This document shows, in pieces, positions 11,592 to 62,527 of a stretch of DNA of 64,000 nt; positions within the stretch are counted from its first letter, which is position 1, and each line of letters starts with the position of its first letter. Made by a program: the position numbers and the translations under genes. Source of the DNA: Enoplolaimus lenunculus (Eukaryota); assembly GCA_030248215.1 (NCBI GenBank), contig JASANG010002214.1:62001-126000 (forward strand), read 5' to 3'. The notes beneath the pieces were generated by a model. That model had not been told where the DNA came from. It ran no database searches and saw only the letters and a program-made list of their open reading frames with translations.

Positions 11592-11779
11592 GGCCCATGT
11601 ATAGAGCAGGGTCGGAAAAGGAGCATATTAAGCGTATTCCAAATCCTAAGCCTAAGCGTAAAGCCTAAGCCTAAGCCTAAACCAAAGCCTAAGCCTAAAC
11701 AAAAAGTTAGTCTAAGGCTTAAACTGACTCTATTGCATTATCTCTGGAAAAGGATCCAGCGCTGTTCTATACATGGGCC
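11592..11779. mobile_element. GGCC-ended MITE containing a TTAGGC telomere-like array
   Basis: TIR GGCCCATGTATAGAGCAG / CTGTTCTATACATGGGCC; TSD GAAACGTG/GAAACTTG; (GCCTAA)n inside. Confidence 0.88.
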
Positions 11780-21618: not shown

Positions 21619-21623
21619 TGTGT

Positions 21624-30384: not shown

Positions 30385-30462
30385 TGTGTTCACCATTTCA
30401 GTTGCTATTGTCGATGATCAGTTCAATTATTGCTTGCTCGTATGCACTTTAAAACTCACATT

Positions 30463-30649
30463 GGCCAATGTAAAGAACAGGTGCGGAACAGTATTATAAG
30501 TTCATTCCTAAGCGTAAGCGTAAGAATGAGCATATTCCTAAGCGTAAGCCTAAGTGTAAGCCAAGCAAATAAATTAGTCTATTAAATGTTAAGCTTACTC
30601 TTTTCTAGTCCCACAGAAAAACGTTCCGCCCCTGATCTTTACATGGGCC
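30463..30649. mobile_element. GGCC-ended TTAGGC MITE, about 80 bp after the HDHD3 stop
   Basis: GGCCAATGTAAAGAACAGG ... CCTGATCTTTACATGGGCC. Confidence 0.85.
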
Positions 30650-38300: not shown

Positions 38301-41300
38301 GAAGAGCTTGGCCTGTTTGAAGTGTTTGATTCAAGTTATTTTTGGAATAAAAGTTTACTGAACGATTTAATCGATGCGTATTGTGATAATCCAAGCAGGT
38401 CGATAGAGCGCTGGATTGTTCCTGTGATACAAGGTTACATCGAAATGACGCATATGTCAATTCCCCTTGATCCTGTGTACTCAGACAATTGCTGTGGTAG
38501 ATCACGAAAGCCAAGTAACTGCAAAAATGATGGTGAAATGTGCAATGAATCAAATGACAATAATAGTAGCATGGATATAAGCACGTTATTAATTTCACGT
38601 CGTAGTGTACATCGCGCTGGAACCCGATATATTAAGCGTGGAATAAACGAACGAGGATATGTGGCGAATTATGTCGAAACTGAGCAAATTGTTGCGATTG
38701 CCGGCCACGTGTTATCGTTTGTACAAGCTCGAGGATCGGTCCCGGTGTTTTGGTCACAGCTTGGCTATAAATATAAGCCAGCACCTCGGTTGGACCGGAG
38801 CCATGATGACAATTTTGTTGCGTTCACGAAGCATTTTGCTGATCAGTTTGCGAAGTATGATTCGATAATTGCGGTCAATCTGGTCGAGCAAGGCGGAAAA
38901 GAAAGGGTAATTGAGTATTTTTAGCAGGGTGCAAAGCGGAACTGGATTATACCGGAATCGGAATGTATTAACAAGTATAATCTTGATTTAGGGTGTCTGT
39001 TCGCTGGTAACAATTCTCAAGAACGTCTATTGGCAATCTTTTTTGGTTCTGTAAAGCTAAACTACAATCAATTATTGATAAGTTAACTTATCGAAAACAA
39101 ATTAATAGATAAATGATGCTGAATTTTTATACAACATATCACAACAAGCAGGTCTAAAATTAAAGTGTGGAAATTCCGATTCCGATTGATTGTGCAATCG
39201 GAATCAAAATCGGAATCGGAACTCGTTTTGAATCGGAATTTTAATCGGAATTCGGATTGCACCCTGATTTTTAGTATCAGTTGTAAAACTTGAAGGGCTG
39301 GCTGCCTCGGATTCCAGTAGATTTTGTTGCCATCGCACTTCGGTACTTTTCTCCTATGGTTGCACCGCTGGCAGCTCCCCAGATCAGCTATTCGACCATA
39401 ACCTTTACCTTCAACTCCGGCAAATTTTGTTAACATTCGGCTGTTGTATTTTTCACCTCCGGTTGCACCGTGCTAGCAGCCTAGGGAAACACCGTCATAT
39501 AGTCGAATTTCTGAAAAATTTGAATTTATTGCAAAACGGTCCTGGGAGATTGCAAAATTTTAAAAATCCCACCATTTTTAGACAAATACCGGCAGGCGAA
39601 CTGATAATAGAAAAGACTCTTATAATTTTAAATGAATATTCGTGGTTCGCATATATTAGTTGAACCATGTTGAGGTCTGAATTGGAATGTGAACAACGGG
39701 TTTGAACAATGTACTTCTCGATAGATAATGTATATGTAAATTTTACTTTTTGCTGAGAGTCATTGAACTACACTAAAAGCATTTCGACTAATTCCAAAAC
39801 GACTGCGATGGAAGCGGTTTTATTTAGTGCTTGTTTGGTGGACTGTCGCCACGAACAGAATCAAGTACCATCAGGAATGTGTTCTAAATCATGACTGTTG
39901 TTATTATTGCTGATTCCAGTTTAGCAAAAGTTAAGTGCCATTACAAAATCGCGGTGGCCACCACAGTAGACACAATCGAGATTGTTGCACACTTATTTCT
40001 GTCTGATACTGTATATTTATGGATGCTGCTCTATTTTAGTAGTTTTCTAAATAATAACACAGGTTTTGGCAGACGAATACCTTGACTGCGTCCTAGATTT
40101 CGACAACGAGAAGCTGAAATACATCGCATTTGATTTTCATGAGCACTGTCGAGGCATGAAATTTGAAAAAGTTTCAACGTTACTCGAAAATGTTGCTGAT
40201 CTTATCAAAAAAATGCGATTTCTGTGGGTTGACAAAAACAAGGTACGGAATTTTGACTTGTTGACTGTTGATCGCTATGGCATATGTATATACAGTTTCT
40301 TGTAACAATTTTTTTGTTGAGTTATTTGTTTAGTTTCCTGCAAACATAATAAACTGAAAAAATAAAATAGGTTTAGGTGTAGGCTTTGAAATAATATAAA
40401 ATATGTAGATAGTATGTTTAGGAATAATTTTGGCCTTGGAAGTAAAATTTTGAGCTATTGTTAGGATGGCGTTATACTTTTGCGGTATCATAACGTAATT
40501 CATATGCGTTGACCGCGAACACGACCGACAACAGCCGACATTAAAATAGAAGAAAAGTATAACGCCGCTAATAATTAAGTAACTGTTGTGGTACGGCTTT
40601 GCATTCTTCATTTGGAACTTCATTTTAATACAGAAGTTTGTGGTTTTATAATAGCTTGACGGAACATACATTTCTATTACAGGACGTCGCATGTTTTCAA
40701 AATGGTGTATTTCGTATCAATTGCGTGGATTGTTTGGATCGAACAAATGTTGTTCAAGCTGCATTCGCGAAAGAAGTATTTGAAAATATGCTTCGCAAAT
40801 TCGGTCTCCTATCACCTGATTCCATCCTGCCACATGCTGTTGTAATGGCGTTTAAGTTGATTTGGGCGAATAACGGTGACAGCATTAGTCGTCAGTATGC
40901 AGGCAAGTAAAAAATACTGCTGAGTAAAAAATTCAAGTTAGTACTTAATATTGTATAAAACCAGTTTTGTAACCAATGCCGCAAAATTCTATTTGTTCTC
41001 AAAAAGTGCGCGAGAATTGCGCACTATAGCTTAGTTTTTTGAGCGAAGCGAAACTCCGAGCGAAGCTCGGAGTTTCGCGAAACATTTTATGTTTTGTACT
41101 TGGGGGTCGAAAGGTGGATGTCCGTCCGTCCGTCTGTCCGTCCGAAAAGAATCTCAGGAACGGCTGAACCGATTTTGATAAACTTTTTTTGTTTGAAAGT
41201 CAATTATTCTGGGGTGTTAACCTCTCATTGGGGTTTTAAAATTTTAAGCCGTTTGTTAGCTACAGGCTGATTTGCATAATTAATCAAGCCTAAATTAGGA

Positions 41301-44300
41301 CTTTCCACAATATTTCACTAATTATTACAGTTAGAAGCAATCTAATTTAGCATTAAAAGGTTTTTGGGTGCGAGGAATCTGCGTAGACTGTTTACAAACC
41401 TCCAAAACCGATAATTGAGCAGTTAGCTAATAGATAATTTGCATATTAACATAGTTTATAAGCCTAAATTTGGACTTTTTACAATATTTCACTAATTATT
41501 AAGGTTAAAAGCGATATAATTTCAGCACTAAAGGGTTTTTAGGTGCGAGGAATTTGCATAAATAGTTTACAAACATCCAAAACCGATAATTGAATAGTAA
41601 GCTAATAGCTAATTTGCATATTAGCATAATTGACAAGACAAAATTAGGACTTTTTAAATTATTCCAAAAATTATTAGGGTGGCTGAAGGGTTTTTAGGTG
41701 CGAGGAATTTGCATAAATAGTTTACAAACATCCAAAACCGATAATTGAATAGTAAGCTAATAGCTAATTTGCATATTAGCTTAATTGACAAGACAAAATT
41801 AGGACTTTTTAAATTATTCCAAAAATTATTAGGGTGGCTGAAGGGTTTTTAGGTGCGAGGAATTTGCATAAATAGTTTACAAACATCCAAAACCGATAAT
41901 TGAATAGTAAGCTAATAGCTAATTTGCATATTAGCTTAATTGACAAGACAAAATTAGGACTTTTTAAATTATTCCAAAAATTATTAGGGTGGCTGAAGGG
42001 TTTTTGGGTGCGAGGAATCTGAGAAAATTGCTTACAAACCTCCAAAACCGATAAATGAATGGTTAGCTAACAACTAATTTGCATATTACCTTAATTGCTT
42101 CCGTGTGTTCGAGCTTCGCTCAATAAATGTAGTCCCGCTACGACTGGTTTAAATTTATTTTTAATTTTTGAAAACGTTCAACCGATTAGCCAAATGTTGG
42201 GAAGAAACCCCTTATATGGCCCGAATGCGTATGAAAACAAAAAAGTTCATCGTGAGCTATTTTACAACACATTGATTTCGAGTATCCTACTAATTTGCTA
42301 ATGTGTAATATTTTGAGTGACATATTTAAGTGTTGTTTGTCAGAAAACTACGGAGTATAATGTTATGCACCGACAGAAGAGTACGTACAAAGCTATATTG
42401 CACTCAAATGCTATACTTGGCATAGGTTATATGCTAATTTAACGTGTAGCTAACTAATTTGTAATCAAACCGTTGTGTTTAAATTTGTCATGCTCGAAAA
42501 CCCTAAAGCCAACTGCGCTCAAACCTTTTTAAAACGGCAGTTTTAGACGTTTAAAAACAATTTATTAATGTTCATCGCATTCAAAAACCCTTTGGTACTG
42601 AAATTAGGTTGCTTGTAACTAATAAATAGTGAAATAGTATAAAAAGTCCTAATCTAGGCTTAACCAAATTATGTATATTTGCCTGCAGCTAGTAAATGGT
42701 TCAGTATTTTAAAGACCTAATGTGAGGTTAACACCCCAAGATTCGCTCCTGAGTACAAAATATACAACGCTTCGCTAAACACCGAGCGTCGCACGCAGTT
42801 TCGCTTCGCTCAATGCACTTGCAGAAGAAAATATTCCGAATGTAACTGTTTTATTTGTGGTGTTTCGAATTTTTAGGAACTGCTGCATTGAAAGGTGATT
42901 ACACACGAACGGGTCATCGCAATTTTGTTGGACTCATGCGAGATGGCTACCATTCAGCGTCAAGATACTATCTGTGCCACATCAGGGACGCAAAACGGCA
43001 AGCTGCGATTGATATTTTGCTTGGAAAGGTTAGTATAACAAAAGTTTCTTTTGTTTAACATTTAAATTTCTTCGGTTGGTCAGTACCCATTATTGCGGAC
43101 GACTGAAGTGGAAGAATATTTGCACCTTGTTGATTTAACTTGCTCAACACTGATGACGTTCACTAATTTTTGCTTTAAATTTTTTTCTCAGTAATTTCCT
43201 TACCAAATATTTTTCATAAGTTTGTCCAGTGTAATCAGTCTGTTGGTTCGGCTCATGTCTAGTACGTATAACAACCTGTCCAGTGGGAGAAAACTGGTTT
43301 GGGCTATTTAGAGAGTAGGAAGCTTACGTTTAGTATTGATTAGTTTTATGTTCATGGTATGGCTTATACATACGTGTAATAAGCAGTGTGGAACCGGAAT
43401 TCCAGTTCCAAATTTTTCACCTTCCGGTCCGGTAAATTTTTAACTGAGCTTAAAAATTCCCGTATTAAGTTTTGTTGGTGGAAATTAAGCATTTTACTAT
43501 AAAATGCCGATGAAAATAAAATAGATTTCATAAGTTAGTATATAAACTTTAACAATCACTGAAAAGAAATAATCGAAGGTAGATTTCGTGCGTGTGGATA
43601 ATGAAAATTGAAAGTACAGCAGGTTGAGTAAATAGCTTTCTTCAACAAGGTTATTTATGAATTTTTTGGTGGCATGTATTTGTAACTTTTCAGGTCCGGT
43701 AATTTTTTCAAATGCCACTTCCGGAAAATTGTAATTCCAGTAGTATTCTGGTTTCAGACTTAGGTCTAGCCTTATGCTTTATAGGCAGGCTCTTTTAGTT
43801 TACTTGGGCCGTAGGCTTTGTTTGAATTTGAATTTTGAGCTTATATGCTTTTTGCGATATTCTGGTTGTTAGCCTGATTTTAAGAATGTGAAGCCTGCGG
43901 ATATTGAAAGCACAGTCGCAGATACGTTGAAAACAGAAGAATCTTGGCTAGACGAGCGTCACGAAGAACTGAGGCTTTTAGTGCAAGATTGTCAACGCCT
44001 TATCGTACCTGAAGATGAAACTTTGTTGGGTAAGTCGCCGTTCGATTTTGTTAAAAAATTTTTTGTGAAAGGGTCGCAGCAAGTTTCTGCTGTTTGTTCT
44101 TCGTAGTAGCTGTGTACTGAGGAAATGTAGATTGTTTGGGAAAGGCACTGGAAAATACTCAAAATAAATATTGCTTTTAAGTAAGAACTTTCTGCCCTTT
44201 CTCGATGAGCATCAACTTGAAAAATTTGGACAAATGTGTTAATTATTTTTACATTTGAGGTAATGTGTTACAGGCGGTTGGGCTTTAATCGATGCAGATA

Positions 44301-46790
44301 TAACTTCCGGAGATGCTATGCAAGAAGATATGGATACAGTCGTTCTGCTGACTGGAAATGTAAGTGACTGGCAATGGAATTGTTGTACATGCAAGCTTGT
44401 CAGTATTTAATATCGATTATAATAATAAATTTAACTTTTCTTCAATTTTCCTGATTGCTGTTTTAAAGCACATAGTTTACCTGCATTGCATTCTTATGAT
44501 AAATCTTTTAAATGCTTTCTTGAGACAAAGAGTGGAGTTATACTTGTCGAAGGCATAGTTCGCCGATATACCGCCGGAAATCTTTGAAATAGTCAAAAAT
44601 ATAGGTTCACCCTGTGAGAAATAGATTTAATTTAGGCTATTTTTAAAATCTATATTACCAAATTAATTATGTTATTTACGTATTCTTCTAGTCACTGTTT
44701 TACCGTTACAAACAGTATTTACAATGCTGCTTGAGTTTTAGGCATACTACGTGGCTGACTACGACGAAGAACAAGACAAATTCGTTGATTTCGAGCGTGT
44801 CCCGCTGGCTCAAATCGAAATGATTGAAGTTGGTCCGATGGCAATTTCTGCAAGCATCATTAGTACGTCTCGGCAGCGTGTGACGTGCGTTCGCGTATGG
44901 CACGGTGTCGCATCAACGGAAAGTGTCAGTACACAAGCAGATTCCACAAGCGCCATTGAGGCAGAGCCGGAACCAGTTGACCCGGCGAAAAGAGCGTCGA
45001 CAAGTAATACTAAACGACCAAAATTATCCGGATACTTTCATGTATGGAGGTCGGCTTCAACACGCTTGTTCAACAATATGGCGATACCGATTAGGTAAAA
45101 CAAATTGAAGCAGTGTTCGACTGCTGGTTAGGATATTCGATCGCCTACGTGCTGTGAAATATGGCCATAAATTGTAAGGTTTGTCCAAAATCTCGTTCGA
45201 AAAACTTGCAGCTTCAAATAATTCGTTAAAAATCATATCTAGGAATTTAGTTCACATGTGTGAATAACCATGCAAGTTCACGGAATTTATTGCGGACGCT
45301 TTCTCATTTAATTGCAAGTTTTGCGTGCAATTCAAAGCCGCAAGTTCACGCAGTAAAAACATGCACGTGTAAATAAGGCTTAGAAGTAACGATCAAGCTT
45401 CTGAATATACTCATTGAACTATAAATTATTTAACTTTATTTTTGGGTTTTTATTCCATTTCTCCAGAAGCGATGATGAAGCTCGTGAATATATCACTGCA
45501 ATCGGCGAACAGTTTAATGTTGCGCTTCGTTTTTCCAAAATGCCTGAAGTGACGTTTGTTCATGTGACGAAAATGGAGCGACGGCGGGCTCGAACAAAAC
45601 GAGGAGGCGGCAGCGGCGCTAACAACAGTGCGTTTGGTGGAGTTTCCAGCTTTAAAGGTGTATTTTTGGGTAAACTTCCACTTCGAGGTTCGTCCGCAGG
45701 TGGGCTATCCCTCTCTGGATTTGGACTCTTTAGTCGCCCACTGACTGGCGGCAGACGTGGCCGACCAGATACCACTGAAAATGACAAGTCTACTCCAGTG
45801 CCAATCAGTAATGAACATAACATTAATGGCACAGCCAAAGCCGACAAAGCTGATTCGCAGAGCGCTGCTAATGATTTAGCTTTGTCAGATAGCGCTATAT
45901 CGGACTACACCGAAGCGACTGCAGAATCGTCTAGCCTACGTTCACGTCTGTTTCGAAATCCGCTAAATCCAGGCCTTGCTGGGGTCCGACGGTTACAAGC
46001 AAACGTAACACGGCGATTTGCCGGAAGCGATGGGGCTGTCACAAGCGAGCGGCAAGAAAATGAAGTTTTTGGCGAAGAAAGTTCTAAGGCAACTGAAGAA
46101 GATAACCTTACTAGGCAATTGCTTTGTTCGAACACTGATGCCACATCAAATGGTGGTTACGTTTCTAGCGAACCTGCTGGATATGCAGTAGATAACAGCT
46201 GTGAAGGTAAGCTTGGGCTTTCGGGTCAAAATGAATCAGGTCATACTGTCTTGCCATTGTCATTGCATTCCACATCGCACACGAAAGCGGCGTCTGGTGA
46301 ACGTATCAGTCTTGATAGAAGCTTGTCTCATAGTGATAGCTCAATCAACGTTATAGAACATTGCTCGGTAGCAGTTGTAGTAGAAAAGGATGACGGTATT
46401 TTGGGCAGCAGCGAGCATTCAAATGAACTAGGCGCTAGTTATACTGCAATTGGAAGCGGTGGCAATTTATTGAACAAAGTCACCCAAAGCAAAGGTGGAC
46501 GGTTCTTGACGAGTTCGTTTGGGAAGTTGGGGTCACAAGTTGCAACAGCGACTGGTAGTGGTATGAGTGGGATACGTCGAAATTTATCGTCTGCGAGCCG
46601 GTTGGGATGCCCTAGTGACACGGCTGTGAAATCAGATGCGGCTGATAGTGGTGAGCAAAATGCGATGGGTAAACTTGAAGTTCCAGGGTCAAGTGGCAAG
46701 CACCGACGGAGTAATAGTGGAGAAGCAACAACAACTGATAGGCTTAAGTGTAAGATTGATTCGAGCAAATGTGAGATAAGGATTATTTAA
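35313..46790 (+). CDS. INPP5F: Phosphatidylinositide phosphatase SAC2, 10 exons
   Basis: Exons at about 35313-35409, 36546-36690, 37479-38906, 40063-40242, 40683-40902, 42877-43028, 43873-44029, 44274-44358, 44741-45094, 45467-46790. Sac motifs LISRRSVHRAGTRY, ANYVETEQI, RGSVPVFWSQ, catalytic CX5R in RINCVDCLDRTNVVQ, WANNGDSISRQYAGTAALKGD. The hSac2-like GGWALID segment distinguishes it from SAC1. Confidence 0.93.
35675..36185. mobile_element. Fold-back MITE with GC-rich 21-bp tandem subrepeats, INPP5F intron 1
   Basis: TIR AGGGTTGCGTTATAC / GTAGCGCAACCCT; CCGTCACCCGTACGGCACCGT units on the left are inverted on the right. Confidence 0.8.
38925..39266. mobile_element. hAT-type MITE with GGAATC subterminal motifs
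   Basis: CAGGGTGCAA ... TTGCACCCTG ends; perfect 8-bp TSD ATTTTTAG. Confidence 0.88.
41036..42150 (+). mobile_element. Helentron-associated element (HINE/DINE-1-like) with internal 155-bp tandem array
   Basis: Subterminal inverted repeats TTGAGCGAAG (41039) / CTTCGCTCAA (42114), (GTCC/GTCT)n microsatellite at about 41119-41143, AACCGATTTTGAT core, 3' hairpin followed by TTT. Repeat units start at 41641, 41796 and 41951. Confidence 0.85.
42430..42813 (-). mobile_element. Degenerate HINE-like copy
   Basis: Reverse-complement match to the 5' part of the 41036 element (CTTCGCTCAA, GAGTACAAAA, AAAAAGTCCTAAT). Confidence 0.7.
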
Positions 46791-47326: not shown

Positions 47327-50229
47327 CTGTTTTGGTTTGGAAATTTTACAGTTTATTGGTTGTTTGTTTTTCGGTTGATTTTCTAGAAAACACATTGTTA
47401 CCTTATAAGCTCAAGAACGAACAGTTCGCATGGTAAATTTTCACGTTGATAGTATAGTGTTGTTGTGGTTGCATCCTCTCGACCGCTTCTGTATCCGCAA
47501 CTTTGACCACGTGGGATGTCATTTTTGGTATTGTTATTGTATTAAATTTAAACCGGTACTTGTCAACTATCTCGAGTTTATTATTATTATTATTATGCAT
47601 TCCCTAATATATATGTATATAATTAATGTACATATAATATACATAAACACTTATTGCTCGTGTGTGGTTTTTACTTATGTAGAAGCAGTACTGAATATGC
47701 ATTATGTTTTTTAACGTAAAAAATAGCCGGACGGCTTAGAGCATTCGGCATCTTGGTATTTTTTTGGAAATCTGTCGGTGTTATTTTAATTGAACAGTGT
47801 GATAGAACCTACCACTATTGTGTTAGAAAGAAAGATACAAACTAAGTCAAAGCTGTTGAAGCAAAAATGTGAATATTTGCGGTTTCGGAAAATGAAGGTA
47901 TACGTACTGGCTATCAGAAACTTTCAAACTTGAATTTTTGGTTAAACCTTTAGGTGTTGGTACTCGTGTTTTGAAAACGTAATCGTTTCAGTTATGTATA
48001 TATAATTTTCAGACAATGTTGATGAGTTTATTACTTATATCTTTAAATCTCGGTATAGCCTTGTATGCAACTTGGACAATCGTGATTGGGTAATTTGTCA
48101 CTGACTTATAGAGTCTTCTTTATTTTACATTTTCATGTTTTAGAGCGAAGTTCCAACGGAATTCCGATTTCGGCTAAAATATCGATATAAGTAGGTTCCG
48201 ATTCCGACTGGCTGCTATTCCGATGCCGGAATTCCGTTTTTTCCGTTATGATAACAAAGTCTATAAACTTATATTTTATTTCATAGCGGCAGGCAGTGAT
48301 GTTAGCCCCACCAATTTTCAAATATATATAGATAGATGTTTGGTTAAACAGTATTCTTACTGTAGTAACAGCGGTACTCCACACAATTTTCTAAGGTTCA
48401 AAAATTTGTTACTCTTAATTCTTATTTATTGTTTCATAAAACTTTATATTTAAAAATTTGAAATGCTAAAAATGTCGAATTACACATCAAATTATGGCCA
48501 AGCTGATAAAGTGCTCATTGGCAGGTGTGTAACTAATATCATAAATTTTTGAACGTTAGTAGATGGCTAATACAGTCAGCTATACAAGCAATTTTTACCG
48601 AAACTTTGAAAAATACCGACAGGCATAGCATCAAAAGTCAAAAGTCATACACTTGACTTTTTAATGGAATTTCTAAAACTTAAATTCTGATTCCGCTTCC
48701 GACAACCTTTACTCCGGATTGGAACCATACATTTAGCGCGCATTCACATTTGATGCAAGGGAGTAACCGGATATCTATTCCAGTAAAATCCGGTGTCCAT
48801 TTCCGTTATGCCAGCGCCAAAAAAGAAATATTTGGAATTCGCAGTTTGTTATAATTTCTCAAGTGATTCTTTTTCTGTTTTTAATGTTGACATTATGTAT
48901 CTGTTTTTTGGTTTAAAATCAATTTAATAAATTTTGTTCCCAATCTTTAAACATTCATGTTTTATGGCATTTTTCAGCAGTATTCAGAACTATTATCAGT
49001 ATATTCGAGTTAGGTACCTTAGTTGGATTGGCACAAAAAATAATTAAATCGTATTCTTGATTTTAGTTTCCTTCGTTTCAATCACTCGATATAGAGCTGT
49101 CTGGTGCACATGATACTCTCTGTATTCTATTATACTGTGCTTAAGGGTCTTTAAATTGATGCCGCGTGGGTGGAAATGAAACGTTTTATTTTAGTTTCGC
49201 TGTTATATACGCGTTATTTGTATTTATTATTAATTTAGTGAATAATTCAATTATGTATATGGATTTTACTTGATACGTTGTGTTTTTCTGTCATCCGACT
49301 CGATACATTTTAGTGGGTTGGTGTAATAGAAAAAATAGCCATTCACACGTGGCATGTATGTTTTGTCTGGGGTTCACTTGGGTTCACGGCCTAAAAAGAA
49401 TCTAGCATTGAATGACAAAATTTTGAAAAATTGACCAAATCTACGAGTAATTTTTGAATAATTTGAAAACAAAACGAGTCAGCCTTTTGGCTCGCGTCGC
49501 TCGCAAAATTCACGTTTTGCTCGCCTCGGTCGCGAAATTTTCTTCCGATTGGTGCTCAGGCGAATGCCACGTCTCGTTAAGATCACCGGCACAAAGAACC
49601 TTTTTTATATGAAGGGTCCGAAGTATGGTATCGGAGACTGTTTAGGCAATCGAAGACTGTTTGGGCAATTTTGGTAGAGGCGTTGATATTTTGTGCATAT
49701 TCCGCTCATTAACTGTGATTCATTTAATATTCTGCCATACTTTTTTATCCAGTGGTTGAGTTTCTGAAATCTTACTTAATTACTTAAGTCGCCGAGTTAA
49801 GTAAACACTTAACTTTTCGAGCAGAAACAAATAAACCACAAATGTTAGCCATTGTCATAACAAGAGAGTAATAGTTTTGCTTTATATTGAAAAAGCATCG
49901 TGAGTGTACAATTTTATTTAGACTAAACTTAATATGCCTGAAGTCTGAACTGTTAATGAGTAATATACCAAATTTAGTCAACGACTTAAGTATATACTTA
50001 ACTTAAGTACGCTTTTGTAAACGACAAAATGGATAAGTAATTACTTAGCACGTACTAAAGTACGAAGTCGTACTTAATTAGCTGTGGAAATTTTTGGTCA
50101 GTGTATTGCTAAGGGCCAGCAATGCTTTAAGTCTTTGTCAGTACGCCTAGTAACTATCTTAATTTCTTGTTTCACCTAATTCAGGATTGCACGTTAATCA
50201 TTCCGTAGATGTCATCCGTTCCTCTTTAG

Positions 50230-50426
50230 GGCCCATGTAAAGATTTGGGGCGGAACGTTTTTCTGTGGGACTAGAAGAGAGTAAGCTTAAAGCTCTAAAC
50301 TGATTTTTTTGCTCGGCGTTGGTCTAGGCTTAAGCTTAGGCTTAAAAATAAACTTATTCTTGCGCTTAGGCTTAGGCTAAGGAATATTCTTATAATACTG
50401 TTCAGACCCTGTTCTTTACATTGGCC
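50230..50426. mobile_element. GGCC-ended TTAGGC MITE
   Basis: GGCCCATGTAAAG ... CTTTACATTGGCC ends; TSD CTCTTTAG/CACTTTAG. Confidence 0.87.
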
Positions 50427-50665
50427 CACTTTAGTATCCCTCGGTTCTAGTACGTGGCTCATGAATTTCCAATAATTGCATTTTTAACTCGCTCGAAATA
50501 TAGCTTATGTGCTTTTAATATTTATGCATGCATGTCTCGTCGTATATACTTTAAAATGTTGCATAAAGCTTTATAAATAAATGCATGGACGTTTTGTTTT
50601 TTGAGCGATTTTGAGTTATTCAGCTTTTGCTTTCAATAAGATCGCTTTCAGTTTGGTTTTTGTTC

Positions 50666-51807
50666 CAACGTGTAGGTGGCTGTGCCACACTTAAACCTTT
50701 TTCAAATTAAAACTAAAATATAAAATAAAACCAAACATCAAAACCACACCTTAACGGAGTCCCTGGCTCCACCTAGTCTCTCTTAGAACTCAAGTTAGGC
50801 TTAGGCGTTGCTACAAGGCGTAAAAATTGTTAAATCGATGCTATGGCGGCTGTGTCCGCAATGTAAACTTACCTGGGCCCTGCGTGGCCGTGAACTATCT
50901 GTTGAATATTATTGCGTATACTGTTGGCTATTTTTGCGATTAACGACATAGCTAGGCTATGTCAGCACCAAAATGGTGCTTTATGAGTGGCTCGAAAATA
51001 ACGTTATTGTTGTTGTTGTTGTTGTAGTGTGTTGTGGAAGGAAGTGACACCGGGTGTGTGGCTCTGGACCTCAACCGCATAGCGGACACCCAATTGTGAG
51101 TGTCGGCGAAATGCAAATGAGGTCGAGATGCAAACAAGGGTAGCCAGGACCGGAATCATCATTCTTGGAGAGCTAGTGAACAGTGGTGTAATTTGTATCG
51201 ATCTAAACTACAGAGTGTTACAGTTTTTATTGTGTTTCTAACGTATCGGGCGTTTTGACGGCAAGTGAACCTTGGGTAAGTAGGATCGAACGGATTTAGT
51301 TTAAGTATTGTCACGGTGGCAGGCATGTGAAGGAAACCACGGTGCATAGGTTTAATCGGCATTGCGCAAGGCGCAGGATTTACCCAGTATAGAATACTGG
51401 TGTCATGTGTTAAAGGGGAAACTTGGGAATTACCGGAGAACCTGGGAAAAGTAGTCTAATAAATCTAACGGGGTTAGATTTATTATTCTACAACGGCTTG
51501 GCCAAATCTAATGGGGTTAGATTGGTCGGAAATTTGGTGTAACTCTAACGGGGTTAGAGTGCACGGTTTAACAGGGTGTAATTCTAACGGGGTTAGAATT
51601 GCACGGATTCTGGAAAACGGCAAAAATATTGGTAACGTTAAAGCCAGTGGCTGGATTAAACCAGATTCAGGCGTCGGCTTTAAGGATTCCGGTTCGGGTT
51701 GCCAGTTAAATTGCATAACCTGTAATTTGCTGGTATTGCATATTGGATATTTGGTGTCATACGGGTTTCGGGTTGGGATTTTTAATAAACATTTACCGGC
51801 CGCGTTT
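50666..51807 (+). mobile_element. Hairpin-rich dispersed element of unknown class, copy 1
   Basis: Colinear, end-to-end homology with the reverse complement of 59998-61243. No coding capacity, TIR or TSD seen. Confidence 0.75.
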
Positions 51808-51813
51808 AATTGG

Positions 51814-52176
51814 CTGAGTTTCTCAAATCTTACTTAAGGATTTAAGTGCTTAAGTTACACTTTAGTAATTACATGTCGCCGACTTAAGTACTTAAATTTT
51901 CAAGCACAACCAAAGAAGCGCCAAATATTAACGAAACGACCATTGTCATGGCAAGGAACTAAGAGTTTTTCTTAATATTATTGAGGCATCATGAGTCTAA
52001 AATTTCAATTAGACAAAGGTCAGTATGCCTAAACGGTAACTAGTATATCGAATTTAGCCAGCGACTTAAGTATTTACTTACTTAAGTACTCTTTTAAAAA
52101 CGGCAAAATTTTTAAGCAATTACTAAGCCTGTTCTTAAGTACTAAGTCGTACTTAAGTAGCGTTTCAGAAACCCAG
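51814..52176. mobile_element. MITE with ACTTAAGT subterminal palindromes (second copy about 49756-50090, fragment about 15750-15830)
   Basis: CTGAGTTTCTCAAA ... TTTCAGAAACCCAG ends; colinear with 49756-50090. Confidence 0.75.
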
Positions 52177-53623
52177 GAAAGATTGCACCCGAACTCTCGC
52201 CATGATCTGCCCAAATTTTATACGACCCATTAAATATAGAACTCACCAAAGCATCTACTTTTACACTGTTTAGTTTGCCCATTTGACGAGTAAATTTTAC
52301 TGAACGTGGCATCGTATACACAACAAATATTTCGTGCTGATTTAAAACAAAGTTTGAATTATAAAAAGTGACAGTTTTCTTTTAGTCTCATTCATCTGTA
52401 ACTAATTTAAAGGTTCTATCTTTGTTAGCGTATTTTCAAACTGGAAATATTCATAAGCTTTCTTGCGAAACCCGAAGAAGTTAAGAAAGCCGATTTTACC
52501 TTCTCGTCTGTTTCACTATAACGACATTCTTTCGGTGGCCACCAGCGTTAGAATTTTGTTGATCCGCTCATTTTCTCTATAGACCTATAACAAGGCTGTA
52601 GAAGCACACTTCTCGATAAATCAGAAAACGTTTGGCAAACCACTTTGTGAGGTTATTGCCGGATGACGATCGGGGCCGAAACCACACCTTGCGATCCCTG
52701 TTTCCGTCGTGCCGTTGAGCCCTCTATAAAGTTCACTGAGGTACTAAAAATAATTCATTAGGTCGTGTGTGGTCCGCATCGTGTCTCCCTGCTGTTCACG
52801 GAGGTGTACTTGTATTACAGAGGTCGTATTCGAGAGAAAAAGCCAATTAATTTAGTTAAAAACATTCCGTGCCATCCTCCACAATCTTTGGATCATGACG
52901 TATGAAGGTTTTGGAATGACCAGAATTAATTTTCTGCCAGTGTGACCAAAACCGTTCCTGAGTCGACACTCCGGAATGAGGTCCTATGAGAGGACAAGGT
53001 CCCCCATGGGGGAGTTCGGGTTGTTATCCCCGGCACTGGTTACGATATAGGATGTATTATCCCTTTTTAAACACAACCGCTGACAAACAATTATGGTTCT
53101 ATGCAAGCAAACACGAGTCATGCTCGACTGTAGACGTTGCTGTTAGCCTAAAGTGTTCTATATTTGGCTCAAATAGATTATCGTAGGTTTATATCTGTAA
53201 ATGCATAAAATTGCCTCGTTAAAGCTGGTTTGTACCATTCCAATAAAGAGCATAGAGCTAACGTTTGATATAACGAATCAAATATTTATGAGATGTTTCA
53301 ATGGATGTTGCAACAATATATAGAAGTTCAACCTAAGTGCTATTAAACGTGCAAGTGTGTACGATGTACGCATAATTTAATATTTGTTCGAAATGAAGAA
53401 TAAAAATCTTTCTTCAAATCTAATTTTAGATCTGCCCGACATACGTCATTTTTAGCTGCATGCGTTAAATATGTTTTAGTCGAACACATACTGAGATAGG
53501 CACTGCTAATACGTATCCCATGAAAAGAAATTGTAAACGGTCGTTAGAATTGCTTGAACCCCGCTTTAAAAATAACGTGAAATACAATCACACCCCAATT
53601 TAAACTTTTTTGACTAACATCCC

Positions 53624-53830
53624 GACCCATGTAAAGATCAGGGGCAAAGCATTTTTGATTTTTTGTGGGACTGCAATAGACTATTAAACTTAAGCTTTAG
53701 ACTAATTTTTTTGCTTCGCTTTAGGCTTTAGGCATAGGCTTAGGCGTTTTAATATGCTCATTCTGACGGTTAGGCTTAGGCTTAGGAATATGCTTATAAT
53801 ACTGTTCTGCCACTGTCCTTTACATTTGCC
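53624..53830. mobile_element. GGCC-ended TTAGGC MITE
   Basis: GACCCATGTAAAG ... CTTTACATTTGCC; two TTAGGC blocks. Confidence 0.8.
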
Positions 53831-54212
53831 CTCATCCATACAGTATCTTGAAGTTGGTTCACAGCGGAACGGTAATTTAAAATAAAATTATTGTTTTTGT
53901 CGTTTTCAGATGAACTGTGCTGGAATCTTTAATTTTACAAAAATATATGCTATTTTAAATTTCTCGGTATAGCTAAGGGAACAATGTATAATTGCGGTGT
54001 TGGCTGGTTCTTGGAAAGCTGATAAAATTCGCATGTTGCCATTTTATGCATGTATTTTGTTCGATATTTTAAATATGTACGAAAATTTTTCAAATACTTT
54101 TAATAACGGCATTCAGACGAAATCAGAGGAGGCCTATCTGGATTTCGTGATATTTTAGCCTCAATGTTTCTCGTCCGTATATTTAATTAAAAGTTATTGG
54201 ACCCAAAAACTG

Positions 54213-54366
54213 GGCCCATGTAAAGATCAGAGGCGGAACGTTTTTCTATGGCACCAGAAAACAGTAAGCTTAAGATTTTGACCAATTTATTGCTTGGGCT
54301 TAGTCTTAGACTTAGGCTTAGGAATATGCTTATAATACAGTTCCGCCCCAGTTCTTTACATTGGCC
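54213..54366. mobile_element. GGCC-ended TTAGGC MITE (short variant)
   Basis: GGCCCATGTAAAG ... CTTTACATTGGCC. Confidence 0.82.
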
Positions 54367-55499
54367 AAAAATGCCATTGAATTGTTTTTTCATGTAAAAA
54401 TCCGTGGTTTCCGAATGTTTCCGGTTCACGGCATAATTTTGCCGTTTAAACATCAACTCAATCGAATAACCAGAATTTCTGTTTGGGAAGAGCAACACCA
54501 AATGTATAAGTTTTTACCGATCTCGACGGAAGTAATTTATATTTAGTAACGGATACTGCTTAAAAAATTGCGGTTTCATAACCATTGAAGAGGGAATAGC
54601 CGCCACGATCTTCTTTAGCTACGCGGACATTGGAACGTTGACAAGTGTAACAGTTACAATAGTATAACCATACTGTAAAAAACGTGTAAACCTTATCCTT
54701 AGCCTAAACGATAAATTAGTCTAAAGCTTTAGCTTTTACTCTATCATAGTGCCACGAAGAACAGTTCGCCCTGTAAAACGTGAGCCGTGACTGGCAACCG
54801 TACTATAGAAGTTTAGGCATTTTATGCTCTGTGTGCTGTTTCATATAATTAAAATCAATATACATGACGGTTTATATTTTTGCCAGTGTACCACAGCCGG
54901 TAACAACAGACAAAAGCCATAAGGGACTGGATTCCTTTTAAAAATTCGGGTCTTTTCAGTTTATTACAGCTAGCAGACATTCGCCCAAAAATAGTAGGAT
55001 TTGGAACCTTTTTGCATGTTTGAGCTTTTCATGACCTTCATGCCCGTTTCGTTACTAAATTTGAAGTTTTGGAAAATTCTATTACTACAGTCACAATGCC
55101 CCCTCTTAAGATCAAAAAAACTTTTTGTCAAAAAATTACACACAATGACGGGAAACATGGTCAAACAATCGATTTGGAGCCGTTACAAATCCGTCACAGG
55201 TAAGGTGCAACTGGAGGTGGAAATCAACAGAGCCGAAGCCGGATGTCAAATTTCTGCGACTGCCGGAGTCGGACGTAGACCTCCGGTGGTACCCTGCTGA
55301 CAGCGCATTAAATCTGTTATTTGTCCAAACTCGTTTAACCAATCGTATGATTGTGAAAAACTTAAAAACAACATTGACAATAAACCTTTTGGGTCCCGCC
55401 TGGGAGACTCATAACCTTAAAAATAGACCTTTTCCAAACTTCAAATTAGTGCGTGAAATGACCAGGGGTAATTATGATTTGCTCAAATATGCAAAAATT

Positions 55500-55665
55500 T
55501 GCCAATGTTACTTTAAGGGGCGTAACAGTAGATTAAGCGTATTCCTAAGCCTAAGCCTAAGCCTAAGCGTTGCAAAAAATGTGTTCCTAAGCCTAAGTCT
55601 AAACCTGAGCCTAAGCCTAAGCAAAAAAATGTAATCAAGAATCTAAACATACTGTTTTATGGACC
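55500..55665. mobile_element. Degenerate TTAGGC MITE
   Basis: TGCCAATGTTA start, (CCTAAG)n blocks, ATGGACC end. Confidence 0.65.
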
Positions 55666-57734
55666 CATCACAAACGTGGACGCCAACTTAAGGTGGTCCC
55701 AAAAATTTTCAAAATCCGACTTTTCCTATATGCGAACTCCGGCTGTCAAGATAACCGAAGAAAAAACTAAAAAAATTGCTGCTTCCACCCACAGGTTTGG
55801 CCTAGTGAAATGCCGCCTGAAATTTTTTCCTCAAACATGTTGGATTAATCTACGGGCATATATTTTCCACTCAACGCAACGTTTTACTGAGACTACGGTT
55901 GAAGGGGCATCTATCACTCGATAGACTTATTTAAATATCACCAGCTGGCACTCACCGCATATATATACAGAGGTATATCCGACTGACTTACAATAAAATA
56001 CCTTATATACCATTTTAGTACAACTGAGAACAGACCAGTACACAGATAAACTATATATACTTTAATTTCTTTTCACGATTTGTCTTCAGCTTAGCGTCGT
56101 AAGTACACACCCCAAACCCATGGTCAACTATATGCCTAAACTAGCTCCTCAACCGCTGAGAGATATAGCAGATGGAACCCTGGGCCCCGTATATGGTTGG
56201 TTGTTTATAAAGTGGGTTTTAGTGTAGAGTTTGCGTGAGAATCATACGATATTTATATGGGTCATTATTATGCTATACTGCAAGTTCATCCTCAAAATCA
56301 CATTATCGTCAGTTTTCGTATTTAATGGCTTTTACTGCACTGTTTAGTTAGATAGTGGCATTTTGCATTACCTACGGTTGTTCATGTTACACTTAAAGTC
56401 GGAGGCACTATACTAAATATCGATATATGTATCAGGGTCCGACAGTATATCCGGCTCCCGATCCGGTAAAAAATCGACATCCGGCTCCGGTATTTTAACT
56501 TGCTGGATATTATTTTAAAAGAATTCAAAAAATTTATACAATCATTTGTATTTATGCCAAGTACCATCCGAACTGATTGACTTTACTGTTACATATTTTT
56601 TCTGTCACCCATGTAATGTAAATGTTTGCATGTGACCGTGTACGTTCACAATCTTTATCATCTTTTAAAGGATACGCCTATACCTCAGCATAAAAATGAG
56701 ACTATAACTAAGCCTAAGAGTAAGCAAAAATATTAGCCTTAATCCGAGCCAGGAATGGGCGGAAACTGATCATGAAAAGTTTCGATCTCAGTCAACTCTT
56801 GGTCATCACCCAAGAAAATAAAATTTTCATACTAAACTTATTTGTAATGCTTTTTCGTAGTTTTTGTATATTTTTATAAGTTTTTTGTGTTTCCAGAATA
56901 TCTGCTAATTATTATTGCGTAACTATGAAAATTCATTGATTCATAGCAAATTTCTTTTGTCATGTATTACTTGCTTCAACAATATTAACTTCTGCTATTT
57001 ACAGGTCTACCAGCTTTTGCTGAATCTTCGACTTTTGGTGTCGGTTTTAAATCGCCGAGACTCAAGAAACCGATACCTGCTAAATACCGAAAGTTGCAGT
57101 GATTGAGTCCGAGACTGCCATCTCTGATCTCAGCCACGTCTTGTCCTTAAAAGGAGCATGGGCCACACGAATATTGCAACTGAACCCAACGCTACGAAAC
57201 ATAGCGGAATAAAGTGGTTGTTAAAGTGTTAAAAAGTTCGCAAACGAGAAACCAAACGCAATTATAGTACTAAATTTTTAGCAGATAATCTTACCTGTGA
57301 CACCTGTTGGGGACCTATTTTTCGGTGGCACCCATGGATCTGGCAGTAGTTAGAGGCATAGCCATGTGTGCCGAAACTACCGCTGCCGAAAATACCGCTG
57401 CCTGCCCTAGGAATTGGTTTGACCGAATTTTGTTTTCGTCACAAAAATATCCGGATAAGAAAATTGATTTTTATACACACAAGCTTCATACAAACAAATA
57501 ATACTTGGTATTACAGAAACGTTTTCTCACACGTTTCAAACAGAATTTAGGAAGATGCTCCTGAAAAATAATTCTGTTTCATAGAAAAAATTTCCACGAA
57601 AAAATTTGCGTCTTAAGTCTTAAAATCAGTCGTAATAAAATATGAACCCTTTGCCAATATTTTCAGGAAACTTAAATTTCGAAAACCACTTTTTAATTTT
57701 ATTTGGCGCAGGAAAAGATTTCTGATTCTCAGTA

Positions 57735-58156
57735 GTGTATTGACCCGAATAAGAGGGGGAGAGTCCGAATCAATTGGAGCCCGTATCCCTTATAAGAGTC
57801 CGTAAGCTGATAGAGTCCCTTAACCCTAATTAGAGTTCATAAATGTTAATTAACCCTAATTGTAGTGCATAAATGACTCCAGGACCAAATAAAGTTGTGC
57901 TCGAAACTTTAAAGCGTACTTAAATTTTAAAAGTAATATTCCAAAGTATAACGTTGCATTATCGCTCACGCTTTTGATACTAGGCAAAAAAAACGTTTAA
58001 TTCGAAGGATAGTTGCAATACCAGATATATCAGTAACGACGGGTGGCGGAGGGCGGGATCGAAATAAATAACAGTCCGTAACCGAATAACAAAGGGGGGT
58101 ACCCTCTGGAGAGGCCAAATAAATATCAGACCCCCCTCTTATTCGGGTCACTACAG
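57735..58156. mobile_element. Tc1/mariner-type MITE
   Basis: TA|GTGTATTGACCCGAATAAGAGGGGG ... CCCCCTCTTATTCGGGTCACTACAG|TA. Confidence 0.82.
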
Positions 58157-58989
58157 TACCAGATTAAAAAATACTTTTATCAAGGAGGTCGTGTAATCAG
58201 TGCCGGAGCAGGCAGGGGTCGGGGTTCCCCAAACTCCAGGGTGGTGGCACCTAACGTAGAGGTGGATCCATAATTTCTCAATGTTTAATTTAAAATTGCA
58301 TGAGTTCTACATTCGTGTTTGTCACATGAGAGAACACAGTTCCAAAAACAGTTTCACACAAAAGTTGCAAAATGCTGGATCTAGAAAGAGAACCCATCTT
58401 TGAAATAAATCACACTTTCTGCTTGAGTAGCTGAACAGTTCATATTTTTTGAAAACTTATACAATCTTTGTAAACTCCAAGCAGGGAAGACAGCACACGG
58501 CACACCTCATTCCAAAACTGATTTATTAGCGTTCTTGAATATTTCATTTTGGGTGAGTTATATTATTTTAATTGTAGGCTAGCGAGACTAAAGAGTGAGA
58601 AAATTTGTTAACATTTAACAGCACTTAATGGTCTACATAGTGTGCGAAGCCAATAAATGAATGTTGGCAAGATTTAAAGATTGTGAAAAACTCGCGAGCG
58701 AAACGCCAGATGCATTTCAGAACTTGGCGGTTTTTGTTTCAACCGGTTAGGGTAGGGACCCCTTTAGAGGTGGACCCCCTAAACCATAGGGTATGAGGGG
58801 GTAGCTGCTCTGGTCCTGTGCGCAATACATAATAATGGTGAAATTATTTGCGAGCAAAGCGAGCAAGAAGCTTAACGCGATTTTAGTGTTAATTTCATTA
58901 ACACAAAATTACTTATGGGTTTTCATCCATGTTTGATAAGCCAGGGCCTGGGTTGACCTCCATTAATAGATTCGCCCTATAGCTAAATT

Positions 58990-59187
58990 GACCCATGTAT
59001 AGAACAGGACCGGGACAGTAAGCATATTCGAAAGCCTAAGACTAAGCTTAAGCCTAAGCCTAAGCGTACGGACGAGCCTATTCCAGAACCAAAGCGTAAG
59101 CCTAAGCAAAAAAATTGGTTGAAAGCTTACACTGACTCTATTATAGCCCCTAGAGAAAACGATCTGGCCCTGTTCTATACATGGACC
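58990..59187. mobile_element. GGCC-ended TTAGGC MITE
   Basis: GACCCATGTATAGAACAGG ... CCTGTTCTATACATGGACC; flanked by the direct repeat TAGCTAAATT. Confidence 0.85.
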
Positions 59188-59388
59188 TAGCTAAATTGAA
59201 CAAAGAATATGCTTTTCGCATGTATATATAACGTACTTACATGGCGTTAGGTGTCGAATTTCCAACCAACTCTGGCATTTTACGATAAAGATCACAAAAC
59301 TACGTACGAAAATTGTAAGCTTTCAAAATTGTGATCTCATATAAAGTTTTATAGTATATTTGGGAGTAAGCAGAATTAGAAGGCATGG

Positions 59389-59391
<3 letters not shown>

Positions 59392-59438
<47 letters not shown>

Positions 59439-59460
59439 CATATATATATAAATATATATA
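59392..59460. repeat. (AT)n microsatellite
   Basis: Direct read of the sequence. Confidence 0.97.
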
Positions 59461-59997
59461 TTCATTTTGCCGCTCCTGAGCAACCCTTTTCTTGAGTTGA
59501 TCGGTTACAGACTATTGTTTATTTTTAATTCACTACGTACATATTTGTTGGACCCAGCAACGTTCCGTTTTAAATATTCGTTCTTTTGGGTACTTAGAAC
59601 TGATTTGCTCTGGTGCATTTTTGATGATTGCCATATCTGCTAAACTTTTTTCATGTGAAAACTTTAAATTCCCAAAATAATGAAAAAATCGTACCGTTGC
59701 ATAATAGTAACAGTGTTTCGCCATGACCAATTGTAGCCTGTTACGTTTCGATAAGACCACTGATAATTTAAATTTCCTTCAGCGAAATCTATTCTAGTTT
59801 AAAGAGATTTTGAGAATGTCTAATCAGCATTTTAGTATCATCTTTTAGTGGTTTAAAAAGTCGTTACTACGCTAAAATCAGATTGATCCAGAATAGATTA
59901 GGGTTGTGTGAGAAGTTCGTGATTTTGACTTAAGCCTGTATCCTGTATCGCCTGTATAGTTCTTTTCTCGATGTATGCTATTCGCTCTGATTTAGTA

Positions 59998-61243
59998 AAA
60001 CGCGGCCGGTAAATGTTTATTATAAATCCCAACCCGCAACCCGTATGACACACAAAATACCCAAATTTAAGGCCAGCAAATCACAGGTTATGTAATTTAA
60101 CTGGTACCCGCGACCTGTGGGACACAAAACAACCGAAATTAAGGCCAGCAAATCACAGGTTATGTAATTTACTGGTACCCGAACCGTAAGACACGAAATA
60201 CCCAAATTAAAGGCCAGCAAATCACAGGTTATGTAATTCAACTGGTAACCCGAGCCGGAATCCTTAAAGCCGACGTCTGAATCTGATTTAATCCAGCCAC
60301 TGGCTTTACCGTACCAAATACTTTTGCCGTTTTCCAGAATCCGTGCAATTCTAACCCCGTTAGAATTACACCCCGTTAAACCGTGTACTCTAACCCCGTT
60401 AGAGTTACACCAAATTTCCGACCAATCTAACCCCGTTAGATTTGGCCCAGCCGTTGTAGAATAATAAATCTAACCCCGTTAGATTTACTAGACTACTTTT
60501 CCCCAGGTTTCCTTTAATATCCCAAGCTCCTTTAGCACATGACACCAGTATCCAATACTGGGTAATTTCCGCGCCCTGCGCAACGCCGATTAAAATCCGT
60601 GATGCCTGCTTTCCTTCACATGTTAAGCCACCGTGACAATCTTAAATTTAAATCCGTTCGACCTTACTTATTAAAATTTCCAAACGCAAGCCAAAATTCA
60701 AGAAGCAATGTAAAAATAAACGCTCACCGCCAACCAATAAACGCCAACCGATTCGTAAGAAAACTAAACCAAGACTGATTCCGGTCCTGGCTACCCATAT
60801 CGGCATCTCGACCTCATTTGCATTTTCGCCGACACCCACAATTGGGTGTCCGCAATGCGGTCGAGGTCGAGAGCCACCCAACCGGTACTACAACAACAAC
60901 AACCATGCCGGAGACACACAATAATAAAAGCACCATTTTGGTGCTGACATAGCCTAGCTATGTCGTTAAGCGCAATTATAGCCATCTCGATATGCACCAT
61001 TAATCAATACCATTCTATGGCCACGCAGGGCCCCAGGTAAGTTTACATTGCGGACACAGCCGCCATAGCATAGTTTTACCCATTTTTACGCCTTGTAGCA
61101 ACGCCTAAGCCTAACTTAAGTTCTAAGAGAGACTAGGTGGAGCCAGGAACTCCCTTAAGGTGTGGTTTTGATATAGGGTTTTATTTTAGTTTTAGTTTTT
61201 AGTTTGAAATAGGTTTAAGTGTGGCACAGCCACCTACAGGTTG
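59998..61243 (-). mobile_element. Hairpin-rich dispersed element of unknown class, copy 2
   Basis: Same termini as copy 1 (CAAC-TGTAGGTGGCTGTGCCACAC ... AATAAACATTTACCGGCCGCGTTT), with an extra triplication of a ~70-bp unit at about 60045-60255. Confidence 0.75.
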
Positions 61244-62078
61244 TACTCAGGAGCTGCGCGCTAAACGCGCGTCGGGCAAAAAGGAATACCCGCGGCCAGA
61301 AGAATTTCACAGTGCGGATCAAAATTTATTAATCTTTACTAATCAAAAATTTTTATAAGAAAATTCGGAAAAGGATATTAATGTATTAAAAAACTTGAAT
61401 TTTTAAACTATTTTTACCGTATGAGTGAAAATTAATTACTACACTCCTGGTGATAACAGACGCAAATTGCACCCATGACCGGCCCGTAGCCAGCTCACCT
61501 TGCTAGGGGGTAAAAATATTTTCAGAAGGGGCATTCAAGGGTTTTGAATGAGTTTACAATTACAAGCAATGTTGAAAGCTTTCTAGGGGGCCCAGAATTT
61601 TCCAGTGGGGCCTAACCCCCCCCCCTGGCCCACTCTTGGCTGGGCCCGACCCATGAACGTCACCTCACTGTTTGTATTCAGAAGACTTGAGACCGGAATT
61701 GTATTTCCGGCGTTATCATGTCAAATACTGAACAAATTTTGCACGACGGGTGTAAACATTATCAGTGAAATTGTGCTCAAAATAAATTTTTCGGTAACAG
61801 TTGTTTTTTTCACAAAATCGCATTTATGATCAAGTGCTATTTGTTTGGGTTAATATTTGTCAAATTTTATATGCCTATTGTTTCAATTTGCGTACAGTCT
61901 ACATTCTCTATGTTCTATAGAAAATTTCTGACACTCAATAGCTTCAACGGTAAAATATTAACATTTTGCTATAATGGTTTCCGGCACCATCACGTACCCA
62001 ACAATAATGTGTTCCTTAAGGCATAGTTGCATTGTTTCGTGGCGTTTATATACAGTGTTGCTGTTTATAAGTACGTAT

Positions 62079-62279
62079 GGCCCATGTAAAGATCACGGGC
62101 GGAGAGTTTTTTTGTGGGTCTAGAATAGTGTAAGGTTAAGCGGTAGATTAATTTTTTGCTTGGCTTAGGCTTAGGCTTAGGCTTAGGAATATGCTCATTC
62201 TTACGCTTAGGTTTAGGTTTAAGCTTAGGCTTAGGAATATGCTTATAATACTGTTCCGCTTCTGTTCTTTACCTTGACC
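62079..62279. mobile_element. GGCC-ended TTAGGC MITE
   Basis: GGCCCATGTAAAG ... CTTTACCTTGACC; a run of about four TTAGGC units at about 62161-62187. Confidence 0.85.
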
Positions 62280-62527
62280 AGTAGGTTCATAGATATTTTT
62301 TCGTTCAGACGTTAATCGTTATAAATGCCTACTTTTATTACCCCTAATCCTAAAACAAAGCCTAATCGTAATTTTAATTCAAATCTCACGTCTGAATATA
62401 AAGCTAAATCATGAGTCTAAATCAAAGGCTAAACTTTCTAGTCTCTGTGTCGCCAACTCCTGCTGTCTCTTAGTTTAATAGGAGCCAATTGCTACAAAAT
62501 CTACATTGAACCGGTCTCAGCGACACA

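Follow-up and report, generated by a model that had tools for sequence, protein, structure and literature searches.

In a 64,000-nucleotide stretch of Enoplolaimus lenunculus DNA (contig JASANG010002214.1, positions 62,001 to 126,000; hereafter the window), we examined two inverted copies of a hairpin-rich repeat, and concluded that the repeat is probably the long terminal repeat (LTR) of an LTR retrotransposon; copy 2 is likely an intact solo LTR, and copy 1 likely belongs to a diverged subfamily and has lost its end. We reached this identification because the repeat combines TGT...ACA termini, a 5-bp target-site duplication (TSD), a purine tract ahead of the TGT of some copies and an AATAAA near the 3' end. 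A first-pass annotation of this DNA had described an unclassified structured-RNA mobile element or multicopy non-coding RNA (ncRNA) family. It was correct that the element is mobile, multicopy, non-coding and hairpin-rich, but what we see is likely mobile DNA of an ordinary sort and not a new RNA class. The annotation had itself named an LTR match as evidence that would count against it, and the termini, the TSD and the upstream purine tract largely provide such a match.

Blastn aligned copy 1 with copy 2 in inverted orientation at 80.5% identity over 1131 nt (50666-51773 with 61243-60177), with a second segment pairing 51702-51807 with 60104-59998; no third family copy was found within the 64-kb window. 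Identity is patchy, as previously described. Per 50 columns it is 0.9-0.98 in blocks and 0.42-0.52 at about 51160-51250, where the annotation had placed an unalignable spacer, and the differences between the copies are clustered beyond all 5000 permutations (variance 20.7, against a permutation mean of 4.9 and maximum of 12.5; p=0.0002). We also agree that the copies have no terminal inverted repeat (TIR) beyond TGT/ACA, no CTRR end, no poly(A) and no open reading frame (ORF) of consequence. The only open frame common to both, in the 3' half, shows 4 synonymous and 11 non-synonymous codon differences and had no homologue among 165 candidates; its codon pattern is neutral, and it is without protein constraint.

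Three public DNA sequencing runs (X1, X2 and X3; one organism, two samples, one study) all contain the element, and show that it is a dispersed high-copy repeat family. A search of sequencing runs listed no RNA run with the element, a result that carries no information about expression. Summed contig depth on copy 1 was 1e5-3.5e5 in the conserved blocks and 263 in the main spacer, while the unique flank stood at 29.6 in X1. Summed depth is not copy number; dividing the peak by the maximal 31-fold overlap of k=31 contigs leaves, by our arithmetic, a few hundred copies, and the distinct junction contigs at one end numbered at least 99, at least 91 and at least 61 in the three runs. Where the two copies differ, copy 2 carries the majority letter at most of the variable sites listed, and copy 1 is therefore the outlier. 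Four contigs of X3 part from the element at 50891 and continue for a long way (median 181 nt) in unlike sequence, which suggests that there are more subfamilies or derivatives formed by deletion.

The family starts at TGT (50671 on the plus strand, 61238 on the minus strand), because contigs leave the element at 61238 with diverse flanks, whose agreement beyond the junction is 0.38-0.57. Among the 18 of 66 rows listed for contigs matched to 61192-61330, exits numbered 5/55/25/14 at 61237/38/39/40 in X1, 47/24/14/6 at 61238-41 in X2 and 3/39/10/9 at 61237-40 in X3, with the tails at 61239-41 stemming from flank letters that happen to match. The CAAC with which the annotation had begun the element is thus flanking DNA, and the two ends that it took to be shared are respectively too long and, as described below, the edge of another element. 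At least 102 of the 251 junction contigs listed have a C directly ahead of TGT. In X1 and X3, which represent the two samples, the loose-end cells at 61238 have ten letters in common after the first base, and the first eight of these are pyrimidines; read on the element strand, they form a purine tract that adjoins TGT. This tract was the commonest sequence ahead of TGT in two of the three runs (plurality agreement 0.38-0.39), and is a putative polypurine tract (PPT), a feature that lies upstream of the 3' LTR (PMC8742986). Just beyond the TGT end of copy 2, a GC-rich, hairpin-forming segment of ~60-80 nt (61262-61320) is at single-copy depth in all three runs.

At the opposite end of copy 2, a perfect duplicate of the 5-mer that adjoins TGT directly follows an ACA at 59907, 1332 bp away. 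The annotation had reported no TSD; copy 2 has an exact one. The empirical chance of finding ACA plus the 5-mer within 150 nt is 0.2-0.4%, and that of CA plus the 5-mer is 1.0-1.4%. Of the two termini, TGT is family-wide and ACA is seen in copy 2 only. This end lies 91 nt beyond the one drawn previously, and the added segment is a putative U5. The AATAAA that the annotation had noted near the 3' end is present in both copies, and the one in copy 2, 115 nt from its 3' end, is a candidate poly(A) signal.

The copy-2 insertion is presence/absence polymorphic between the two samples. Record 8 of X1 and record 16 of X2 match only from 61239 on, after 471 and 420 unrelated letters, and the sample of X1 and X2 therefore lacks the insertion, leaving the locus empty; in X3, from the other sample, record 24 runs into the element. 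Because the match begins at 61239 and not at 61238, the base ahead of 61239 in the empty allele is evidently not A, and therefore three of five candidate ends (AATAAACA, GCG and GCGTTT) are ruled out. The TSD junction sets the start of record 8 at 59431, and the first 31-mer of the record then ends at 59461; this is the last base of an (AT)n array (59392-59461), at which one would expect a k=31 contig to break off. As read here, the LTR family has been recently active and is still polymorphic.

The apparent 3' end of copy 1 at 51807 is the edge of an abutting element resembling a MITE (a miniature transposable element with inverted repeats), because the left inverted repeat of this MITE begins at 51808-09; four other MITE ends match from 51809 inward. 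The MITE family (51808-52182, 49750-50090 and 15490-15840) has CTTAAG-rich inverted ends and a summed depth in the thousands. Since nothing resembling the 91-nt segment follows the MITE, we infer that the end of copy 1 was deleted.

Reverse transcription, integrase action and the formation of solo LTRs are established for LTR elements, and would account for these observations as follows. During reverse transcription of a full element, the purine tract would have primed the plus strand, and a DDE integrase would then have inserted the product by cuts 5 bp apart. The two LTRs of this element would have recombined and left a single LTR, copy 2, between the duplicated 5-mers. In copy 1, a deletion at the abutting MITE would have removed the last ~90 nt together with the TSD. 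The cis-acting blocks, namely the integrase end, the palindromic elements (protein-binding or RNA) and the poly(A) region, would have persisted in the two lineages, and their spacers would have drifted or recombined. General LTR features, in the portion of one source cited here, include AATAAA near the 3' end, TG...CA termini, tandem repeats and stem-loop-linked conservation, with stem-loops tied to residual conservation in long R regions (PMC3601003).

Several points weigh against an LTR. No gag/pol, primer-binding site (PBS) or paired LTRs were seen in the window, and none is in its ORF list. A TSD was found for one of the two copies; copy 1 has no exact one, and the six candidates within 4.5 kb that agree at 4 of 5 positions say nothing either way. 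The TSD was searched for post hoc, the duplication in copy 2 can also be read as 6 bp, and the terminal complementarity of the element is limited to TGT/ACA. The 91-nt end has no counterpart after copy 1 or its MITE (the best score was equalled by 291 of 300 random windows) and as a family-wide feature is unsupported, with no loose end at 51807 among 18 listed (1287 unlisted). The left part of the empty allele was deduced from record lengths rather than read, the start of 59482 implied by X2 is unexplained, and an end at 59996, after the fourth T, survives the base test. The purine tract is not shown by X2, and the cells that do show it rest on the plurality given above; loci shared between runs can yield similar cells.

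The strand on which the annotation had placed structure is the sense strand of the presumed LTR, and the stems it named do exist. In copy 2, the 386-nt domain (z -3.8) and the hairpin array (z -6.5) fold better than 100 of 100 shuffles. Predicted stems are 88% identical between the copies, hairpin loops 83% and all other sequence 85%. The statement that stems are kept and loops vary is therefore true only in part, and 29 of the 56 changed pairs are broken, many of them in poorly aligned spacers. These 56, from 260 pairs, further comprise 18 that are G-U compatible on the copy-1 plus strand, 6 of the opposite kind and 3 compensatory changes, none of which is in a stem named by the annotation. 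The G-U-compatible changes noticed earlier on this strand are indeed in excess (18:6; two-sided binomial about 0.02 by our arithmetic) and fit an RNA role on the LTR sense strand, but the excess is confounded, because the sense strand is G/T-skewed and the skew favours the same pattern. An internal repeat of the 5' module at about 50845 did not reach significance (160 and 53 of 1000 shuffles).

An unclassified structured-RNA mobile element or multicopy ncRNA kept by selection on its fold, as first proposed, would explain these folding scores, the conserved long-range helix, the G-U excess and the observation that paired sites change less on minus-strand, Watson-Crick-dominated folds (circular-shift p 0.001 and 0.037). 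However, the contrast between paired and unpaired sites was non-significant for folds of the sense strand, the proposed RNA (p 0.15 and 0.35), loops match other sequence in conservation, and the changed pairs offer no clear case of compensation. Conservation is by block, with loops and linkers included, and not by stem, which does not bear out selection on RNA or single-stranded DNA structure; two full sequences cannot separate DNA binding sites from RNA structure. An Rfam search, another check suggested at the outset, gave 0 matches at the gathering threshold across the window, and at E up to 10 gave 4 and 3 matches for the two copies, all far below gathering. A motif scan detected no hammerhead core (CUGANGA) on either strand of either copy, and an HDV-like fold had two loose matches in copy 2 and none in copy 1, with no shared fold. 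Since the LTR hallmarks also explain the ends of the element, we give a structured RNA of this kind very little credence. A role for structure within an LTR element is somewhat less improbable, though still doubtful: on the modelled folds, the ~390-nt domain and the identical-loop hairpins might act as export or packaging signals on genomic RNA, held by selection while spacers turn over, and a basal nematode might thereby host the family as a structured-RNA passenger, itself non-autonomous, of an LTR retrotransposon. A telomerase-RNA origin, considered for an internal TTAGGC pair, was dropped; the motif is common in repeats of the window and is on the wrong strand.

Two readings would have the repeat move as something other than an LTR. 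A non-autonomous rolling-circle element of HLE2/DINE-1 type, ending in GCG and a T run, would make the TSD a matter of chance or the empty allele a product of microhomology-mediated deletion. The layout of conserved blocks, microsatellite, central tandem repeats, 5' hairpin and T run at the apparent 3' end resembles DINE-1 in the sections cited of PMC2374699 and PMC4067079, and FoHeli1/2 end in ATTTT ahead of the target A according to an extract of PMC5148889. No subterminal inverted repeat of at least 11 bp was found in the copies, however, and CTRR is absent; the C so often found ahead of TGT disagrees with the A^T and T^T targets given for HLE1 and HLE2 in part of PMC11417382, and one would have to put the TSD, the contig-length fit and the purine tract alike down to coincidence. 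We consider this very unlikely. We would put marginally lower still a non-autonomous element whose TGT...ACA ends are recognised by a DDE enzyme, Ginger-like or other, that moves it as DNA. It would share these ends and a short TSD with LTR elements, Ginger TIRs start with TGTNR (PMC3601003, in the part cited), and it agrees with the lack of any internal retroelement region, but the TIR here is limited to 3 bp, and the purine tract and the position of AATAAA would be left unexplained.

Other classes were compared and rejected. The TC start, hairpin-CTRR end and A^T target of HLE1 Helitrons were not found, nor were the 11-18-bp (sub)terminal inverted repeats and T^T target of HLE2/Helentron/DINE-1. 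DIRS/PAT/Ngaro elements carry inverted terminal and internal complementary repeats or split direct repeats, NTT ends and no TSD (as set out in parts of PMC3266345 and PMC4157794), and no internal copy or complement of either end was above chance. Troyka elements, with CG...CG termini, a 3-bp TSD and LTRs of 100-400 bp in the portion cited of PMC12440569, are unlike in termini and TSD. Penelope-like elements and retrozymes (hammerhead in the pLTR, 5' truncation, tandem copies) were set aside given the fixed end and absent CUGANGA core; Naiads are without hammerheads in the part cited of PMC8557442, so that hammerhead absence alone does not count against Naiads. Given the junction contigs and the MITE edge, we also dropped an AA^TT target without TSD and a homology end at the R/U5 border. 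Viral contigs gave 0 matches for three patterns, a metagenome scan with 18-mers gave 21 loci of which none matched beyond 21 nt, hence chance, and no literature on this repeat family turned up, sequence identity being outside such searches.

Table 1. Positions in the window of the two repeat copies, their parts and adjoining elements
Feature	Position	Strand	Remark
Copy 1, probable LTR of a diverged subfamily, TGT start	50671..51807	+	stops at MITE ~90 nt before equivalent of copy-2 end
Copy 2, complete 1332-bp element TGT...ACA, probable solo LTR	59907..61238	-	
Main variable spacer	51155..51275	+	summed contig depth drops to 263, against 1e5-3.5e5 in blocks
~72-bp tandem hairpin repeat	60050..60257	-	2.9 units in copy 2, about one in copy 1
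5' hairpin GTGGC-TGT-GCCAC	50676..50688	+	within invariant first 28 nt
Long-range helix CCTGGCT (50762-68) / AGCCAGG (51142-48)	50762..51148	+	identical in both copies
~390-nt predicted multibranch domain, closed by long-range helix (copy 2)	60775..61160	-	z -3.8
Four hairpins with shared CTAAC-GGG-GTTAG core, copy 2	60343..60490	-	60200-60500 folds at z -6.5
Four CTAAC-GGG-GTTAG hairpins, copy 1	51457..51604	+	
TSD copy ahead of TGT, CAACC on element strand (5 bp)	61239..61243	-	
TSD copy behind ACA, CAACC on element strand (5 bp)	59902..59906	-	
Last 91 nt of copy 2, beyond the first-pass end; putative U5	59907..59997	-	no counterpart beside copy 1
AATAAA of copy 2, putative poly(A) signal	60016..60021	-	starts 115 nt from copy-2 3' end
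AATAAA of copy 1	51784..51789	+	from sequence
Separate MITE-like element abutting copy 1 end, outside the family	51808..52182	.	relatives near 49750-50090, 15490-15840
~200-bp MITE-like family copies	50229-50432, 53626-53831, 54212-54369, 62076-62280, 30462-30650, 29036-29230, 11586-11779, 58988-59187, 55516-55680		

Intron-rich animal DNA makes up the window, in which 14877-18027, 29725-30384 and 37479-46790 hold exons of a HADHB-like thiolase, a HAD hydrolase and a SAC2/INPP5F-like phosphatase. The best named match of the thiolase is Romanomermis culicivorax (rank 2 of 374), and SAC2 has at most ~45% identity to other animals. TTAGGC is the nematode telomere repeat, and TTAGGC-rich repeats are frequent here, including internal runs in the ~200-bp MITE-like family (Table 1), which has GGCC(C/A)ATGTAAAGA-type inverted ends. 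Judged from the sequence alone, these features suggested that the host is probably a dorylaimian nematode. A 237-bp direct duplication (21042-21278 and 21384-21620, 97% identical; third diverged copy at 12158-12348) is possibly a short interspersed element (SINE) and carries what we take to be a tRNA A-box-like motif; ARAGORN found no tRNA genes in the window. Tandem arrays of 153-bp and 155/175-bp units and a palindromic CCGTCCGTCAC-type minisatellite element lie at 257-1024, 41275-42097 and 35695-36151. The segment 62420-64000 is GC-richer, apparently intron-poor after 62400, and may encode a membrane protein; the one frame tested, of 116 aa, had no Pfam match. Mermithid genomes can be very rich in repeats, many of them unclassified (PMC10989877, in part).

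As read here, the repeat belongs to an ordinary class, lies in a poorly annotated nematode genome and is of modest value. Its many diverged copies, with their strong contrast of blocks and spacers, would form a good natural data set on LTR hairpins as DNA binding sites versus RNA structures, and the case illustrates that boundaries drawn from two copies can produce an apparent unclassified structured element.

By their descriptions alone, the closest likeness in hairpin content is to the LTRs of maize Sirevirus (Ji/Opie), which are ~1.3 kb long with ~7 palindromes that fold into hairpins and a backbone conserved between families; these are plant Copia elements, however, and their palindromes are an indel hotspot, whereas the hairpin blocks are the most conserved part here (PMC4728375, in the sections cited). 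DINE-1/HINE elements (non-autonomous Helentrons) are alike in conserved blocks, a microsatellite, internal tandem repeats and high copy number, but unlike in their 11-15-bp subterminal inverted repeats and T^T target, both missing here, and in the TSD, which is present here. For superfamily, the sequence offers BEL/Pao or Gypsy as candidates only. In the Mag clade of the Metaviridae the TSD is 5 bp. Metaviridae (Gypsy/Mag) LTRs have the integrase motifs TGT...ACA, and their AATAAA lies near the 3' end (PMC3601003), but Drosophila Gypsy families give mostly 4-bp TSDs (PMC3276498), each in the part of the source cited. BEL/Pao elements (Belpaoviridae) have TG...CA ends, a PPT of ~10 nt ahead of the 3' LTR, LTRs of up to 1.2 kb and nematode hosts (PMC8742986), and are widespread in nematodes (PMC3118150, in part); the repeat, at 1.33 kb, is slightly above this LTR range, and hairpin arrays are not mentioned for BEL/Pao there. 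In ends, putative PPT and host it resembles the solo LTRs of nematode Tas and Cer-type BEL/Pao elements, and its 5-bp TSD, which is that of the Drosophila Pao families roo, Max and 3S18 in the portion cited of PMC3276498, fits candidate membership of BEL/Pao.

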